Notes: generated by a model from the letters alone, not told the origin. Positions 54,740 through 60,762 are shown, counted from the whole stretch's first letter. The stretch is 62,289 nt of DNA, filler included, from an uncultured Methanosarcinales archaeon (GCA_964589485.1; 2 parts of 2 records of this genome joined end to end with filler, not necessarily neighbours in it); one strand, 5' to 3'. Program-made: numbers and translations.

Positions 54740-55951
54740 TTACACCTCAATGAATTTGTCTAGTCTTTTTAATGCAACAGCATATGATGCAATTCTAAGA
54801 CTAACTTTATTTTTTCTTTTAACTTCAAGAATTTCATTATAACTTTTATTTATTTTTTCTTTTAATTCATGATTGATTTTTTCAAGTGTCCATTTTTTAT
54901 TATCTTGATTTTGTTTCCATTCAAAATAACTTACACAAACTCCACCTGAGTTAGCTAAAATATCAGGAACAACATTTATTCCTTTTTTGTTTAATATAGT
55001 ATCAGCTTCTGGAGTTGTTGGACCATTTGCTAACTCAATAATTATATTGGCTTTTATTTTATTAACATTATCTAGTCTAATTTGGTTTTCCATGGCAGCC
55101 GGAACTAATATGTCAACTTCTAATTCTAATAATTCACTAGGAATTATTTCTTTCGCGAAACCTTTCACAGTTCCATTAGTATCTTTATATTTGAATAATT
55201 CTTTAATGTTAAGTCCTTCTTTATCAAAAACTGCACCTTTAGAGTCGGAAATCGCAATTACTTTTAACCCTGCTTCATTTGCCAATTCAGCCATAACTCT
55301 TCCAGCATTTCCAAAACCTTGTATTGCAATAGTTGTACATCCTATACATAAAGTTCCTAAAACATCTTGCAAGACATAAAATCCACCTTGAGCAGTAGCT
55401 TTATCTCGTCCTAAACTTCCTCCTTTATTTAGAGGTTTTCCTGTAATCATTCCAGGATCTTTTCTTTTTTCAACTTTTTCAAATTCATCTAACATTATTG
55501 CCATTATTTCAGGGTTAGTATAAACATCTGGAGCTGGACTATCTAAATGACTGCCTAAGTTATTATGCATAGATCTAATATAAGCTCTTGATAATTTTTC
55601 AATTTCATTTTTGCTAAGTTCTTTAGGGTTTACTATAATTCCACCTTTGCCGCCACCCATTGGAATGTCAATAACTGCAGTTTTAAAAGTCATCCAAAGA
55701 GCTAATGCTTTAACTTCATCCATAGAAACATTAGGATGAAACCTAATTCCTCCCTTAAATGGTCCCCTTAAATTACTATGTTGAACTCGGTATGATTTAA
55801 AAATTTTCACTTCACCAGAATCCATTTTTACAGGAATATTAGTTTGAATACTTCTTTGTGGCTTTTTTAAAATATCTATTTTATAATTTGGAAGTTTAGC
55901 TATTTTGTTTGCTTCACTTATTAAATCCAAAGATTGTTCGAATAATGACAT
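54740..55951 (-). CDS. gdhA: Glu/Leu/Phe/Val dehydrogenase (glutamate dehydrogenase)
   Basis: [41 protein letters not shown]. Confidence 0.93.
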
Positions 55952-56094
55952 GGATATTCGAATATGGTTTTTATTTATAAAGTTATCTTTTGAATGAAAA
56001 AGTAAAAGATTACAGTTAGTTAAAAATTCTGAATCTTTTAACCGCTGTTAGTTTCTTTTTCCATACGTAGTGTGGGAAAATTTCGACCGAAAAG

Positions 56095-57193
56095 TAATTT
56101 TTAGTGGCGTTCTATTAGGCGAACACAGTGAGCTATTAAGAACAAGTATCAAGGGGGACATTTCGTTAATCTTTCATTTATAGAAAATTTAGTAGAATTA
56201 TTTAAATACTTCTCATCATTACATATCTATATGAATGATTCAGTAAAAAGATGGATGCCATTAATAATAGCAATAGTTTTAATAATTTGTTCTTTCTTAT
56301 ATCTGAATAATAAGATTGATAACTTACAATTAATTAAAAAGGAGCATATAATAATGACAAATAATTTTTCAGAAAACGTTGTAAAAATAAAACCAAGTAT
56401 AGTGATGATTTTTGCTGAAACAACTAAGTCAGAACTCCCATTTACAGGTGGGGAATATATAAAGATGGATAATAAAGTTTTTTCAAAAGGAACTGGTTTT
56501 ATTGTCACTAGCGATGGATATATATTAACTGCAAACCATGTCGTTAAAGAGGCAAAGGATAAAATTCAAGTTCGAACAATTGAAGGAGATAAATTTAAAG
56601 TATATGAAGCAGAACTTATTTCTTCAAATAATGATGCAGATGTAGCATTACTAAAAATCAACGTAAACGATTTGCCTCATGTAGACTTAGGAGATTATGA
56701 TAAATTTGAAGATGGAATGAGTGTAGGATTTATCGGATTCCCCTTGTCTATGAATTTGCCATTAACCAATAATGGAATTATCTCAGGAAAGGGTAAATTC
56801 CAATATGAAAAAGATGGAGATGGTGTAGATATATATACATTAAATGCTTTTATTAATCAAGGTAATAGTGGAGGTCCCGTTTTTTCTGCAAATACTGGTG
56901 AAGTTATTGGAATAATAAATGCAAGAATGAATGTAGTTAATGAAAAACAATTCATCAAATATGATCCTACTGGAAGAGGACAAGCACTGATTGGGGGTGT
57001 GGATCCAATTGCTTTAGCAGTTGAAACATATAATACCAATCTACGATTTATTGGTGATGTGACTCAGGTTGGAATAGGATATTCCACATCTATAGAATAC
57101 GGTAAATCTCTTTTGAAAGAAGCAACTAAGTAATATTTTTCAACTTATTTTCTAGAAATGTCCCCCTATTAACTATTTAGCCACTAAAAATTA
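56095..57193. repeat. nested inverted repeats enclosing the protease gene
   Basis: taatttttagtggc 56095-56108 / gccactaaaaatta 57180-57193 (14 bp); agggggacatttc 56152-56164 / gaaatgtccccct 57155-57167 (13 bp). Confidence 0.9.
56231..57133 (+). CDS. trypsin-like serine protease (S1C/HtrA-like, no PDZ) with N-terminal TM
   Basis: GTGFIV, LTANHVV, DVALLKI, GNSGGP catalytic triad. Confidence 0.93.
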   Translation: MNDSVKRWMPLIIAIVLIICSFLYLNNKIDNLQLIKKEHIIMTNNFSENVVKIKPSIVMIFAETTKSELPFTGGEYIKMDNKVFSKGTGFIVTSDGYILTANHVVKEAKDKIQVRTIEGDKFKVYEAELISSNNDADVALLKINVNDLPHVDLGDYDKFEDGMSVGFIGFPLSMNLPLTNNGIISGKGKFQYEKDGDGVDIYTLNAFINQGNSGGPVFSANTGEVIGIINARMNVVNEKQFIKYDPTGRGQALIGGVDPIALAVETYNTNLRFIGDVTQVGIGYSTSIEYGKSLLKEATK

Positions 57194-57195
57194 TT

Positions 57196-57288
57196 GAACT
57201 TAACATCAGGATTTAGAGAAGTTTTTGCGAAGCAAAAATTTGGGTAAACGAGTGCAACGGAGTGAACCTCTAAATCCTTGTTAAGTTC
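57196..57288 (+). other. attC-like recombination-site hairpin
   Basis: ACTTAAC (RYYYAAC) 57198-57204 and GTTAAGT (GTTRRRY) 57280-57286; stem gaacttaaca-[tc]-aggatttagag / ctctaaatcct-tgttaagttc. Confidence 0.5.
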
Positions 57289-57414
57289 TTCCGTTAGGAA
57301 TGAGAAATAGTCTGCAAGACGGTTTTCACGAAGTGAAAAATTTCGAAGAGTTGGAAGAACAACGTAAAAATATAAATAACTTGCAAAGCAAGACTAAAAT
57401 TCAGAAAAGGGCAA

Positions 57415-57615
57415 CTAAAAATTATCTTTTATTTCTTGTATTATATTATCAATCATCTCAGAGTAAGTATATTCAGGAAGATTTAATTCTTTTAATACAC
57501 TTAGATCTTCAGAAAAAATTGGAGATTTATCTTGTTTATCTTCTGATTGAACTTCAATATTGAATGGAGTTAGAATATCTTTAGCTAAATCAAATCTTGA
57601 TTTCAATTCAGGCAC
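57415..57615 (-). pseudogene. probable 3' fragment of an unknown gene
   Basis: protein-like composition; 5' end collides with recombinase fragment, no RBS. Confidence 0.4.
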
Positions 57616-57616
57616 T

Positions 57617-57760
57617 GCATTTGGAACTAATTTAGTTAAACAAGGTGTAAGTGTTAAATCAGTTCAAGAACAAATGGGGCATAAGTCAGATAAAACAACT
57701 TATGGGTATGTTCATTATTCACCTAGAGAAGATATTCAAAAGTTTCTTAGAAATAATTAA
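57617..57760 (+). pseudogene. tyrosine recombinase/integrase C-terminal fragment
   Basis: AFGTNLVKQGVSVKSVQEQMGHKSDKTTYGYVH matches box II (F.T.L...G.....vq..lGH....T..Y.H); upstream HxLR missing. Confidence 0.8.
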
Positions 57761-57872
57761 GATAACAACTTTTAACCTCCACTGGACACACTGGACAGGT
57801 GCGCGTGAGGTATATAAAGGAGTAAAGACAATACATACATTACATTGATTAAAAATTTTGATTTTTGCCTAA

Positions 57873-58346
57873 ATGAGGTGGTGTAGTGTGTCGTTATTAG
57901 TTTCAAAAGATACTCCTCTAAGTGAAATTACTTTAAGGAGATATGAAAAACCTGCAAACTTAGGTCATCGTGACTTAATAAAAAAATTATGTCTTTCAAT
58001 TGGTTTATTACAACCGGGTGATTCGAGAGATGTTATAGTGGATGTTTTGTATATTTTATTACAAAGTAAAGAAGAATTGCCAAGTGAAGAAGTTCGTTTA
58101 AGAGTTTTAGAATATAGAAAAGATAATAAATTATCTTTGAAAGGAGTTGCAGGATCAAATATAAGAAGACAATTAAGACGGTTAAGAGAATTGTTTTTAA
58201 TAGAAAAAACTGTTAATAAATATAGAGTTTATGAAAATAGTAACTTAACTCCAACTTTTGAAGAAAAATTGGAAAGTTATTTGTTAAAATCTATTGTTGA
58301 AAGAGTTAAAGATTACTACAAACAAGTTGATTCTATGTTTCAGTAG
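57873..58346 (+). CDS. hypothetical protein, winged-helix-like
   Basis: LSEITLRRYEKP, GLLQPGDSRDVIVD, SNIRRQLRRLRELFLIEK. Confidence 0.8.
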   Translation: MRWCSVSLLVSKDTPLSEITLRRYEKPANLGHRDLIKKLCLSIGLLQPGDSRDVIVDVLYILLQSKEELPSEEVRLRVLEYRKDNKLSLKGVAGSNIRRQLRRLRELFLIEKTVNKYRVYENSNLTPTFEEKLESYLLKSIVERVKDYYKQVDSMFQ

Positions 58347-60762
58347 GTTCTGGTTCACTTGGAGTTGGTTCTTCTTCAGGTTCACTTGTTTGTTCTGGCT
58401 CTGGTTCGTTGCTTCCACTAGTATCTTCAGTATTATCTGGTGCTTGATCTGTGTTATCACTTGTATCCCCTGTATTAGTTTGATCATTTGTAGCATCGTT
58501 GTTATCGTGATCATTACTATTTGTATCGTCAGGTTCATTACTTCCACTATCAGGATTATCACCACATTGACAATTGTTATCATTACAACTCCAACTTCTA
58601 TCCCCACATTTATCAGCACAAGTTGAACATTCGTCTACATAATCATTACTTGATTGTTCATGACATTCGCATTGATTATCATTACAACTCCAACTTCTAT
58701 CTCCACATTTATCAGCACAAGTTGAACATTCGTCTACATAATCATTACCTGATTGTTCATGCTTTTCCTCATAGTAACATTCACATCTGTCGTTTACACA
58801 ATCAGTTCTATCTGCATTAGGACATTCTTGATGACATCCGTCTTTACATTCACTATCTTCTTGACATTTACAATCTCCATTACTACAGTCCCAAGCTTTA
58901 CCATTACATTTTTCTCTACAGTTATCACATTCATTGGAAACACAACCTTTTCCATTGATACAATCTGTTCCTTTAGGACATAGTATAGTTGCACAGTCAA
59001 CATCATTATGTTGTTTATTTTCCAGGTTATTCCTTATTTTATTACATTCATCCCAATCTCTTCTTCCGCTACCATCTAACCCTCTATCTAAACATTCTTT
59101 TGGAGCTTCTAATTTAAATTTAATTTTATCACATTTTCTCCAGTCATCTCTTCCACTTCCATCAATTCCTGCATCTATACATTCTTTAGGTGCGTCTAAC
59201 TTAAACCTAATTTTATCACATTCTCTATGATCATTTCTACTACTTCCATCTAATCCAGCATCTAAACATTCTTTAGGTTGTTCTGCTTTAAATTGTATAA
59301 CTTGACATTTTTTCCAGTCGTCTCTTCCTTCACCAGTTAACCCAGCTTTAAGACAATCTTCATGAGCTTCATTCTTGAAATTAATTACATCGCACTTTTT
59401 CCAATCATTTCTATTTTCTCCTGTAATTCCTGCATCTAAACACGCTTGAGGTGCATCTAGTTTAAATCTGATTAATTCACATTTTTTCCAATCATCTCTA
59501 TTGCTTCCATCTATTCCAGCTTCTATACATTCTTTAGGAGCGTCTAGTTTAAACCTAATTTTTTCACATTGTTGTCTATCATTTTTACTTTCTCCAGTTA
59601 ATCCTGCTGTTATACATTCTTCTGGTGCATCAATTTTAAACATATGTCTTTCACATTCTCTGAAATTTTTTATGCCAGCTTCAATACATTCTTTTGGTGC
59701 TTCCTCTTTAAACATAATTTGTTCACATGCTTTCCTTGCTTCGTTTTCATTTTTAATATTAAGTTTACCAGCTTCTAAAGCTTTCTGGCAAGGTTCTGGA
59801 GCATGTAGTTTAAACATAACTTTCATACAACTTTCTCTAGTTAATGCACCTTCTTTTACACATTCTTTTGGAGTATGTAAATCATGCTTAGAATCTCCAT
59901 ATTTATCTTCAACGTCATCCATTACATTTTGTAAATAATCAGGAAGTAACTTGATTGGATCTTCAACATCTTCCATTTTTTCACAAGCTTCTTCATCGCC
60001 TGCTTCACATTTAGCAGCTAAAGGTGCAATAACTTTACATTTTTCTGCAAATGGTTTAATAGAAATATCATCACATCTACATTTATCTGGACTTTTAAAA
60101 CATTCACTCATTATTCCAAAAAATTGTTTTGCTTCTTTTTCTTGATCTTTAGTTAATTTATTATCTAAATCTTTTTTCCATTTTGGTGAATCTTCATCTG
60201 TTTTACATCTTTTTGAATATTCTAATGGATCAAGTTCGGATAAAGTTTCACATAATTGTTTAATAGTTTTAGAAACTTTTGCAGCTAATGCTATTTTATC
60301 TTCATCTTTTAATTTTTCTTTAATAGTTTCTTTTACGTCTTCCCATTCATTTCCTTCTAAGTTAAAACTTTCTAATATTTTTTTAGATGCTTTACTACTT
60401 TGTCTAACTTTTTCTTCTATTTCAGGTGTTACTTCTTTTTTTAGGATATTATTATATTTTTCAACTCTTTCTAATGCTTTAGATGCTGCTTCGCTTTTAC
60501 CATCTTCAATCATTTGTTTAACTTCAAGAATTTTTTCTTCTTTATATTTTAAAGCAGTTTTTGGGTTTTTTCCTACTAGAATATTTTCAATTAAATTTTC
60601 TAATGCATATAATGGACTATCCGGAGTAATTCCAGCATTTCCTCCTATTTCTGTATCCTCAACATTATCATAAATTCCTTCTTCAAGAACATCAAATCCA
60701 GTAATTAAATTATCTGCTGAAACAGTAGTTGTTAATAATAAAAATAATAATAGTAACCTCAT
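58333..60762 (-). CDS. secreted Cys-rich repeat protein with DUF5667-like N-terminal domain
   Basis: signal peptide; AGITPDSPLY; seven 29-aa FKLDAPKECxxAGxxG...WxKC repeats; acidic tail. Confidence 0.85.
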   Translation of the reverse strand: MRLLLLFLLLTTTVSADNLITGFDVLEEGIYDNVEDTEIGGNAGITPDSPLYALENLIENILVGKNPKTALKYKEEKILEVKQMIEDGKSEAASKALERVEKYNNILKKEVTPEIEEKVRQSSKASKKILESFNLEGNEWEDVKETIKEKLKDEDKIALAAKVSKTIKQLCETLSELDPLEYSKRCKTDEDSPKWKKDLDNKLTKDQEKEAKQFFGIMSECFKSPDKCRCDDISIKPFAEKCKVIAPLAAKCEAGDEEACEKMEDVEDPIKLLPDYLQNVMDDVEDKYGDSKHDLHTPKECVKEGALTRESCMKVMFKLHAPEPCQKALEAGKLNIKNENEARKACEQIMFKEEAPKECIEAGIKNFRECERHMFKIDAPEECITAGLTGESKNDRQQCEKIRFKLDAPKECIEAGIDGSNRDDWKKCELIRFKLDAPQACLDAGITGENRNDWKKCDVINFKNEAHEDCLKAGLTGEGRDDWKKCQVIQFKAEQPKECLDAGLDGSSRNDHRECDKIRFKLDAPKECIDAGIDGSGRDDWRKCDKIKFKLEAPKECLDRGLDGSGRRDWDECNKIRNNLENKQHNDVDCATILCPKGTDCINGKGCVSNECDNCREKCNGKAWDCSNGDCKCQEDSECKDGCHQECPNADRTDCVNDRCECYYEEKHEQSGNDYVDECSTCADKCGDRSWSCNDNQCECHEQSSNDYVDECSTCADKCGDRSWSCNDNNCQCGDNPDSGSNEPDDTNSNDHDNNDATNDQTNTGDTSDNTDQAPDNTEDTSGSNEPEPEQTSEPEEEPTPSEPEPTET
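58577..58761. repeat. 99-bp period near-identical tandem repeat (33-aa Cys module)
   Basis: tatcagcacaagttgaacattcgtctacataatcatt at 58611 and 58710. Confidence 0.9.

Follow-up and report, generated by a model that had tools for sequence, protein, structure and literature searches.

According to our analysis, the 93-nt hairpin at positions 57196-57288 is the main folded module of a linker of about 160 nt (57193-57351), and this linker is probably a folded-DNA recombination site, analogous to an attC, of an integron-like cassette platform driven by a paralogue of XerA and not of a canonical integron. The window, i.e., the whole stretch of 62,289 nt that was analysed, consists of the contigs C12 (1-31350) and C13 of a genome of 1.16 Mb (G000; 23 contigs, 99.9% complete), hereafter the source genome. 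The hairpin lies on C13, for which the window position equals the C13 position plus 31450. A preliminary description of this DNA had taken the hairpin for an attC or an analogous single-stranded DNA site; the analogue fits the fold, the arrays, the recombinase and the half-sites reported below, whereas a canonical attC served by an IntI integrase is unsupported. In the related genomes we observed a family of such linkers with a conserved fold, their ordered arrays, a clade of associated recombinases, a terminal site beside the recombinase gene and a regular pattern of half-sites. The window itself holds a decayed remainder of such an array.

Sequence and Fold of the Hairpin

The linker in the window comprises the following features:

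57193..57207, + strand: linker leader ATTG-N4 with the invariant TAACATC, the putative crossover region according to the leader and half-site pattern
57196..57288, + strand: the hairpin, module B1, characterised by its fold as DNA, by covariation and by a score of 101.4 bits with the covariance model R1
57284..57351, + strand: module B2, the second of the linker, made up of a small hairpin and a three-way junction (closing helix GAAAT/ATTTC), with the end CGAAGAGT

Folding as DNA together with the sequence bore out the 93-nt hairpin with its 21 pairs (10 + 11 bp, split by a 2-nt bulge on the 5' arm) and its branched tip, which contains the mini-hairpin TTTTTGC-GAA-GCAAAAA with a GAA triloop (57222-57238). 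The bounding motifs that had been reported, ACTTAAC (57198-57204) and GTTAAGT (57280-57286), are both present in the window sequence, and the outer inverted-repeat arm, said to stop 3 nt before the hairpin, ends at 57193, which leaves a gap of 2-3 nt. The remark that the geometry of the L box and the extrahelical bases is not clearly canonical was also correct, as there is no unpaired central spacer and the bulge is placed on the 5' arm. The hairpin as a whole is present, but its conserved part extends only from TAAC (57201) to TGTTA (57283). This conserved stem encloses a three-way junction formed by the mini-hairpin and a variable third arm, while the five outer pairs GAACT/AGTTC are paired in the window copy and in only about half of the relatives.

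Both strands fold far better than expected by chance. The predicted energy of the + strand is -19.8 kcal/mol (z -5.47) and that of the - strand -18.9 kcal/mol (z -6.09), and in each case none of 200 shuffled sequences was equally stable. Searches of Rfam returned nothing relevant for the hairpin region, either at the gathering cut-off or at E<=10, a tRNA scan of the window found none, and the window sequence shows no target-site duplication at 57195/57289. With respect to copy number, the preliminary description had seen a single copy and counted the lack of a second one among the results that would speak against its reading. BLAST and the model R1 returned no full copy in the source genome other than the locus itself, so that one intact copy stands there, but a decayed short-form copy was recognised at 56039-56050, and 22 of 60 related genomes carry matches to the model.

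A Family of Linkers With a Conserved Fold

A DNA search of the 60 related genomes with 55950-57870 as the query yielded many multi-copy matches to three stretches: the hairpin with the next ~65 nt, a region that precedes the protease gene (56030-56170) and, at 57779-57826, a motif resembling a promoter. The copies of the linker follow a common plan, in which the leader ATTG-N4 is followed by TAACATC, an 11-bp stem, AAGT, the mini-hairpin, TTTGGG, a variable hairpin, the return strand of the stem, TGTTA and the second module. The latter consists of a small hairpin and a three-way junction and terminates in ...RAAGT or ...AGAGT; between copies its closing helix shows the paired substitutions GGGAT/ATCCC, GGTTT/AAACC, GGGTT/AACCC and GAATTTT/AAAATTC. 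TAAC and GTTA alone are invariant across the family, and the wider RYYY/RRRY pattern is broken in many copies. The full linker measures 110-190 nt and has two three-way junctions within its ATTG...AAGT frame.

Pairing within the hairpin is maintained by compensatory changes. Among 13 hand-picked copies, 87.7% of the alignment cells were paired and 14 of the 28 pairs showed double changes, a value reached in none of 500 shuffles; control alignments that had been slid gave 37-52% paired cells. For 49 copies aligned by the model, 96.1% were paired, with double changes in 18 of 23 pairs and again 0/500 shuffles as high, an alignment that is fitted to the model and thus leans towards its pairing. 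The model R1 had been built from the window hairpin and 12 relatives. At E<=0.001 it matched the 22 related genomes mentioned above, and at E<=1e-5 it matched 64 genomes in a phylum-wide sample of 150 others of high quality, all 64 belonging to the same order or class. Identity within the family remains at 75-90% across many GTDB families of an order and class.

Besides the long linkers, short forms exist in which only the base of the stem remains as a hairpin of 20-28 nt. G001, which is of the same genus, and G022 have many of them. Loci with short forms are L039, L050, L051, L053 and L024, and the intact ones at L050, L051 and L053 read ATTG-N4-TAACATC...CCTGTTA. The distance between the invariant ends thus ranges from a 20-nt short form up to 177 nt, which suits a folded substrate, unlike a duplex site with a fixed spacer. 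At L034 (5042-5469; G030:C3), two near-identical neighbouring linkers read TAACAT and TATCAT, respectively, and both close with TGATA; either the base, invariant elsewhere, has undergone a paired change here, or a recent duplication has since been altered at a single place.

DNA mini-hairpins with GNA triloops closed by C-G are unusually stable. On the + strand of the linkers, triloop hairpins (stem of at least 3 bp, 3-nt loop) comprised 43 with GNA against 4 with TNC, and the + strand had the more stable fold in 45 of 48 copies. This asymmetry shows selection for the folding of one strand, and it fits RNA as well as single-stranded DNA. The inner sequence is conserved beyond what a mere recombinase-binding stem needs, and this leaves room for a role of an RNA or of an accessory protein.

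Cassette Arrays and Their Recombinases

In the relatives, matches to R1 cluster on the same strand at a spacing of 0.3-5 kb, with unrelated accessory genes in between. Examples are the arrays with five matches in G008:C2 and G356:C12, four in G019:C13, G053:C57 and G320:C24 and three in G030:C3. An integron platform is recognised by at least two sites less than 4 kb apart, in one orientation and with cassettes between them, and the arrays of three to five matches in the relatives have this arrangement. The cassette genes lie on both strands relative to the linkers. Their products include an AbiEii-like ATPase, SurE, TrmB, a ParE toxin with a neighbour gene, Fic, LemA and an SbcCD-like pair, and 12 of 27 cargo proteins have no Pfam family. 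The cassettes are bordered by private inverted arms, which begin directly after the ...AAGT end of one linker and stop directly before the ATTG of the next. When the DNA of all retrieved loci was compared pairwise, no cassette turned up in two contexts.

In 10 of the 22 R1-positive relatives, the array is closely followed, on the same strand, by the gene of a XerA-like recombinase:

Genomes with an array-adjacent recombinase: G004, G007, G008, G019, G020, G030, G031, G040, G053, G057

G004 has two recombinase loci, one of which (G004:C92) is a 3'-only fragment like that in the window. The other 12 R1-positive genomes have no adjacent recombinase, and many of their matches touch contig ends. 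The NCBIfam scan covered four of the ten array-linked proteins, which scored 217.3, 222.0, 210.4 and 185.6 bits against the XerA model NF040815 (cut-off 220 bits), a model that non-adjacent XerA copies match with 230-281 bits. Against the IntI model TIGR02249 the same four reached 152-197 bits, below the cut-off of 265, and the match consists of two stretches that skip approximately profile positions 180-240, the IntI-specific region. The best solved relative of the G008 recombinase is XerA of P. abyssi (4a8e), aligned in one stretch, while IntI4 (2a3v) aligns in two. A tree of 21 proteins unites nine of the ten array-adjacent recombinases in one clade (support 98/98), apart from the non-adjacent XerA. 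The tenth is placed on a long branch, and a single clade for all ten is not rejected (p-AU 0.21).

The source genome, at 99.9% completeness, has no high-scoring XerA. Its best match to NF040815 (80 bits, C19:1563-2387) is limited to the catalytic half, and for this reason the C19 protein was left out of the tree; the loci noted in the XerA search of this genome were C19:1563-2387 and C6:42-548. An IntI gene, which the preliminary description suggested looking for elsewhere in the genome, did not emerge, none of three matches in the source genome lying above the IntI cut-off. In G030 (3 contigs, 100% complete), the array-linked gene C3:103817-104575 is the only tyrosine recombinase found, and its product may serve both cassette capture and chromosome resolution.

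The non-adjacent XerA genes are associated with sites of another kind. Clean 11-6-11 dif-like sites were present within 60 nt upstream of five of the ten such genes inspected (in G019, G020, G007, G035 and G033), and for three more of the ten the site is incomplete or truncated where the inspected sequence ends. The dif-like repeats beside non-array XerA genes (L042, L060, L061, L063 and L067) have arms of 9-11 nt and a 6-nt spacer. According to Cortez et al. (2010; PMC2958812), the dif sites of Thermococcales do not adjoin xerA; a dif site beside xerA may be a trait of the present lineage.

Terminal Sites, Half-Sites and the Probable Place of Exchange

A conserved terminal site was found upstream of all ten array recombinases, at a distance of approximately 100-125 nt in eight of them, ~260 nt in G004 and ~700 nt in G053. 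It has a TAAC-type core in every case (TAACAT in five) and a clear ATT[G/A]-N4 leader in eight, and the core is followed by a distinct conserved hairpin of the TATTAAAC type, with no second module. The closing GTTA is absent in seven of the ten. A tRNA-like stretch upstream of the G053 recombinase was rejected as a candidate, since tRNA scans of L033 and L036 were empty. At the opposite end of the arrays, the leader is missing from the distal-most linker in all four arrays whose contig continues beyond it. By comparison, the 15 internal linkers have the leader ATT[G/A]-N4 in 13 cases and ATTT in two.

Metagenomic data, in the form of assembled contigs (Logan) of four public runs, show breaks at corresponding places. 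Summed contig depth over 56048-56178 and 57096-57357 was 10-100 times that of the flanks in the four runs. Matches to other contexts break behind 56095 and restart at 57186, 57200 or 57201, and contigs from other organisms end their match exactly behind 56095 (two in X3, one each in X5 and X6). One X7 contig matches up to 56095 and again from 57193, with a side of 27 nt. Its interpretation as a cassette-less junction was rejected, and the contig marks where similarity breaks. Neither an excision junction nor a circle appeared among these assembled contigs.

The terminal sites, half-sites, arms and contig breaks together point to a crossover between the leader and the stem, and as judged from these sequence patterns the exchange would take place within or next to TAACAT(C). 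The bulge of the hairpin sits on the arm that carries this predicted cut site.

A Fossil Array in the Window

The remaining features of the array in the window, in order, are:

56039..56050, + strand: decayed short-form site TAAC-CGC-TGTTA, with a degenerate leader (ATTC + 9 nt instead of ATTG-N4)
56051..56095, + strand: second linker module of the decayed copy, of a variant type, whose end ...GAAAAGT is the shared linker end
56096..56164, + strand: left private inverted arm of the protease cassette, in the blocks 56096-56108 and 56153-56164
56231..57133, + strand: cargo gene for a trypsin-like serine protease of 300 aa, secreted or membrane-anchored (Trypsin_2, E 3e-26)
57155..57192, + strand: right private inverted arm of the protease cassette (inverted repeat)
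57352..57425, + strand: vestige past the last linker, 59 nt followed by a 14/15 near-duplicate of the right arm (57411-57425)
57560..57760, + strand: 3' end of a gene for a XerA-like tyrosine recombinase, in the orientation of the linkers, comprising its last ~45-60 codons and the region of the catalytic Tyr

In the window, a single gene is thus enclosed by two sites at a distance of 1.15 kb, of which one is intact and the other decayed. The decayed copy is 83-90% identical to the short forms of the same-genus loci L050, L051 and L053, and its variant second module has matches in G001, G022 and others. The two arms of the protease cassette share a 14-nt perfect inverted repeat (56095-56108 / 57180-57193) and a second block, GGGGGACATTTC / GAAATGTCCCCC. 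Of 300 further genomes from the order, one has a homologue of the protease at E<=1e-25, and neither of the two genomes from the same genus does, a rarity as would be expected for acquired cargo. This one homologue, in G165, is not flanked by the linker family (best E 0.2 with R1, filters off). In the same-genus genomes G001 and G002, the genes flanking the array are on other contigs or reordered, and no empty site is definable from synteny.

The recombinase remnant matches PF00589 with E 3.4e-7 at profile positions 135-169 of 172 and corresponds to positions 221-256 of 263 of NF040815. Upstream of it stops occur in all frames, and the candidate of a split SSV-type integrase with its N-terminal half upstream was rejected, the frames upstream of 57560 being closed. 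The identity of the remnant to both recombinase clades is 29-42%, the fragment being too short for assignment to a clade. The terminal-site consensus of the ten relatives has no counterpart in the window. The platform is dead here: of the recombinase only the 3' end survives, the terminal site has been lost and one linker out of two has degenerated. This probably leaves one fixed cassette, that of the protease.

If the crossover lies as the half-sites suggest, the linker that goes with a cassette is the recombinase-distal one. Because of this, the hairpin would belong to the vestigial unit at 57352-57425, and the site of the protease cassette would be the decayed one at 56039-56095. The hairpin does sit 3' of the protease gene, as the preliminary description had it, but the half-sites would assign it to a vestigial cassette on the recombinase side. 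The stretch 57411-57425 repeats 57180-57194 in direct orientation (14/15) 231 nt downstream and may stem from a partial duplication or from the end of another cassette. For annotation purposes, 56039-57760 is best treated as a fossil cassette array with a fixed protease cassette, and neither as an RNA gene nor as the end of a prophage.

Two further elements were noted downstream of the array. A motif of ~45 nt (57779-57826 in the window) occurs six times in the source genome, each time upstream of a gene start (the other sites are at G000 C1:151781, C2:4193, C3:79165 on the - strand, C10:10438 and C14:28189 on the - strand). It is composed of two tandem CACTGGACA boxes, GGTGCGCGTGAG and one TATATAAA box. 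Relatives have it as well, in two instances before a recombinase gene, and the window copy precedes a winged-helix-like gene (57873-58346). The motif is probably the shared promoter-operator of a small regulon. The gene at 58333-60762 (- strand) encodes a secreted Cys-rich repeat protein of 809 aa with DUF5667 at its N-terminus; within it, an 87-nt unit is repeated five times in tandem (59036-59470) and a 99-nt unit occurs twice (58559-58756).

Alternative Explanations

Among the alternatives, a classical dif-like duplex site survives best, and we regard it as unlikely. According to this explanation, the site consists of TAACAT, a spacer of ~8 bp and TGTTA, and the long forms are palindromic insertions into the spacer that fold without any role. 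The abundance of the 20-28-nt short forms, the Xer-like nature of the recombinase and the ordinary 11-6-11 dif-like sites that adjoin the non-adjacent XerA genes would all agree with it. Tyrosine recombinases normally need matching spacers for a full two-strand exchange. In the linker family, however, the invariant ends are from ~8 to >150 nt apart and the "spacers" of neighbouring sites differ in sequence, which disfavours ordinary two-strand exchange between duplexes. Moreover, pairing in the inserted part has been preserved across many double substitutions, and its GNA loops are confined to one strand, indicating that the fold itself is under selection.

The second alternative is that the linker encodes a structured non-coding RNA, transcribed from the + strand, that acts as a processing or insulator element or as a cofactor of the recombinase, the array being built in another way. 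The two elaborate three-way junctions, the conserved unpaired stretches AAGT, TTTGGG and ...GAAGAGT, the preference for one strand and the fold of 57140-57420 as RNA (z -3.65) are what such an RNA would show. It is nevertheless still less probable than a duplex site, for several reasons. No Rfam family corresponds to it even at E<=10; the flanking genes occur on either strand, and the linker is therefore no UTR element of its cargo; and the short forms have lost nearly all of the putative RNA structure. The half-sites at both ends of the arrays and the terminal site by the recombinase call for the breakage and joining of DNA. Other RNA or repeat candidates, namely a C/D or H/ACA sRNA, a ribozyme core and a CRISPR repeat, were considered and dropped.

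A canonical integron attC, left as a CALIN remnant and recombined in trans by a classical IntI after the pattern of the archaeal integrons in Ghaly et al. (2022), is very improbable. The window copy does have ends of the form RYYYAAC and GTTRRRY, and the data file of PMC9668308 includes a few Woesearchaeales genomes with 4 attCs and no IntI; IntegronFinder may therefore catch some members of the linker family, and some of them may have been counted there as CALINs. The motif TAACATC has no match in that file, which may contain no site sequences. In that study (PMC9668308), the attCs were detected by HattCI, Infernal and IntegronFinder, and integrons are reported as rare, with 75 positives among 6718 archaeal genomes and only six IntIs, which have the IntI-specific domain. 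Against that figure, the present family occurs in 64 of 150 sampled genomes. The recombinases argue in the same direction, as the four that were scanned fall short of the IntI cut-off and skip the IntI-specific region, the closest solved relative is XerA, and the source genome has no match above the IntI cut-off. As regards the site, nothing beyond TAAC/GTTA is invariant, an unpaired central spacer is missing and the bulge is differently positioned.

Finally, inverted ends, an intergenic position after a gene and an A+T-rich genome might bring to mind a MITE, a terminator or a chance palindrome, but this can practically be dismissed given the lack of a target-site duplication, the single copy in the source genome, the ordered same-strand arrays by a recombinase in relatives in place of dispersed copies, the compensatory changes in the stem and the failure of all 200 shuffles to fold equally well.

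Proposed Mechanism

We return to the linker as the folded-DNA site of a XerA-paralogue platform, for which we infer recombination at the linkers. The + strand would fold as single-stranded DNA in vivo, so that TAACA and TGTTA meet in a short duplex. The recombinase would bind this duplex, cut within or next to TAACAT(C) and swap one strand with the terminal, attI-like site or with another linker. The product would then be resolved by replication, as in integrons and in the integration of CTX phage. In an excised circle, the two private arms of a cassette would flank the linker and might zip it into one long stem. If so, the zipping of the private arms would let the enzyme tell free cassettes from integrated ones.

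The layout of the arrays resembles that of integrons in one further respect. Integrons read along the bottom strand, which is the folding strand, show the sites, then the docking site and then the integrase in sense orientation. The + strand of the arrays has the linkers, the terminal site and the recombinase in sense orientation, and in this order the layout matches the bottom strand of an integron.

A more far-reaching reading, which is tentative and in our opinion falls somewhat short of an even chance, is that archaea of this class possess a second, independently assembled kind of integron. Here, a dedicated XerA paralogue would stack single-gene cassettes at its own docking site, the site would be a three-way junction formed by the + strand, the crossover would occupy ~7 nt at TAACATC, and the arms would zip only the excised circle.

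Comparison With Known Systems

The integron is the classic example of a device that acquires genes cassette by cassette, and the linker platform shares much with it: promoter-poor accessory genes between hairpins of conserved structure with an AAC...GTT base and a variable tip, a distinct site beside the gene of a tyrosine recombinase that putatively serves for docking, and a cargo with toxin-antitoxin genes and many unknowns. At the level of the site, the window copy has the RYYYAAC / GTTRRRY base of an attC, and the family combines a conserved structure (18 of 23 pairs with compensatory changes) with a terminal part of variable length (20-177 nt). The arrangement of R box, central spacer, L box and extrahelical bases is absent; in its place we found a 6-bp base, a TC bulge on the 5' arm and an 11-bp stem. 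The differences extend to the linker as a whole, which measures 110-190 nt, has two three-way junctions within an ATTG...AAGT frame and bears its bulge on the arm of the putative cut, whereas attC sites have it on the opposite arm. In contrast to integrons, the recombinase is a XerA paralogue, without the additional IntI-specific domain in the four array recombinases scanned, the cassettes have private inverted arms and genes on either strand, and the prevalence in the lineage is much higher.

Vibrio cholerae repeats (VCR) are the long, sequence-homogeneous sites of sedentary chromosomal integrons, and their homogeneity holds within a species. The linkers are likewise long, homogeneous sites repeated along a chromosomal array, but the family keeps 75-90% identity across many GTDB families. 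The IMEX, e.g., the CTX phage, have an attP that folds as a single strand and is recombined by the host XerCD with the exchange of one strand. The system proposed here would resemble them in the action of a Xer-family recombinase on a folded single strand and in the stacking of elements at one locus. Unlike the IMEX, the linker arrays have a dedicated clade of paralogues and a terminal site of their own, their cargo consists of single genes and not of phages, and the site is no mimic of a local dif-like sequence. The pdif modules of Acinetobacter plasmids are bounded by 28-bp duplex sites in alternating orientation. They share with the linker arrays the accessory genes enclosed by Xer-type sites, whereas the linker sites are folded, co-oriented and chromosomal. 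In comparison with MITEs, the linkers lack a target-site duplication and form ordered arrays.

Archaeal dif (Cortez et al., 2010; PMC2958812) is a single 11-6-11 duplex per chromosome. The recombinase family is the same, and the closest solved structure is that of P. abyssi XerA, but in place of one 28-bp site with 11-bp arms and a 6-bp spacer the hairpin family shows variable spacing and many copies per genome, and the 11-6-11 sites adjoin the other XerA clade. A survey of tyrosine recombinases (PMC8138268) places XerA in its Xer subgroup and defines "integron-like" recombinases by an insertion that is missing from the array-linked proteins described here. A full-text literature search found no description of cassette arrays linked to a XerA-type recombinase.

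If the proposed platform is real, Xer-type recombinases gave rise to integron-like gene capture on more than one occasion, and such capture is common, not rare, in these archaea: an analogous device with a simpler Xer-type recombinase and a different folded site would be present in about four of every ten sampled genomes of the whole class. It would explain the exchange of accessory genes among these tiny, host-dependent cells, would offer a compact new pair of recombinase and site, and would represent a natural experiment on the possible origin of integron integrases from Xer recombinases. The initial assignment of the hairpin is partly supported by this comparison, being right in kind, as the hairpin appears to be an analogue of attC, and wrong in family, as its relatives are the linkers of a XerA-associated platform and not the sites of canonical integrons.
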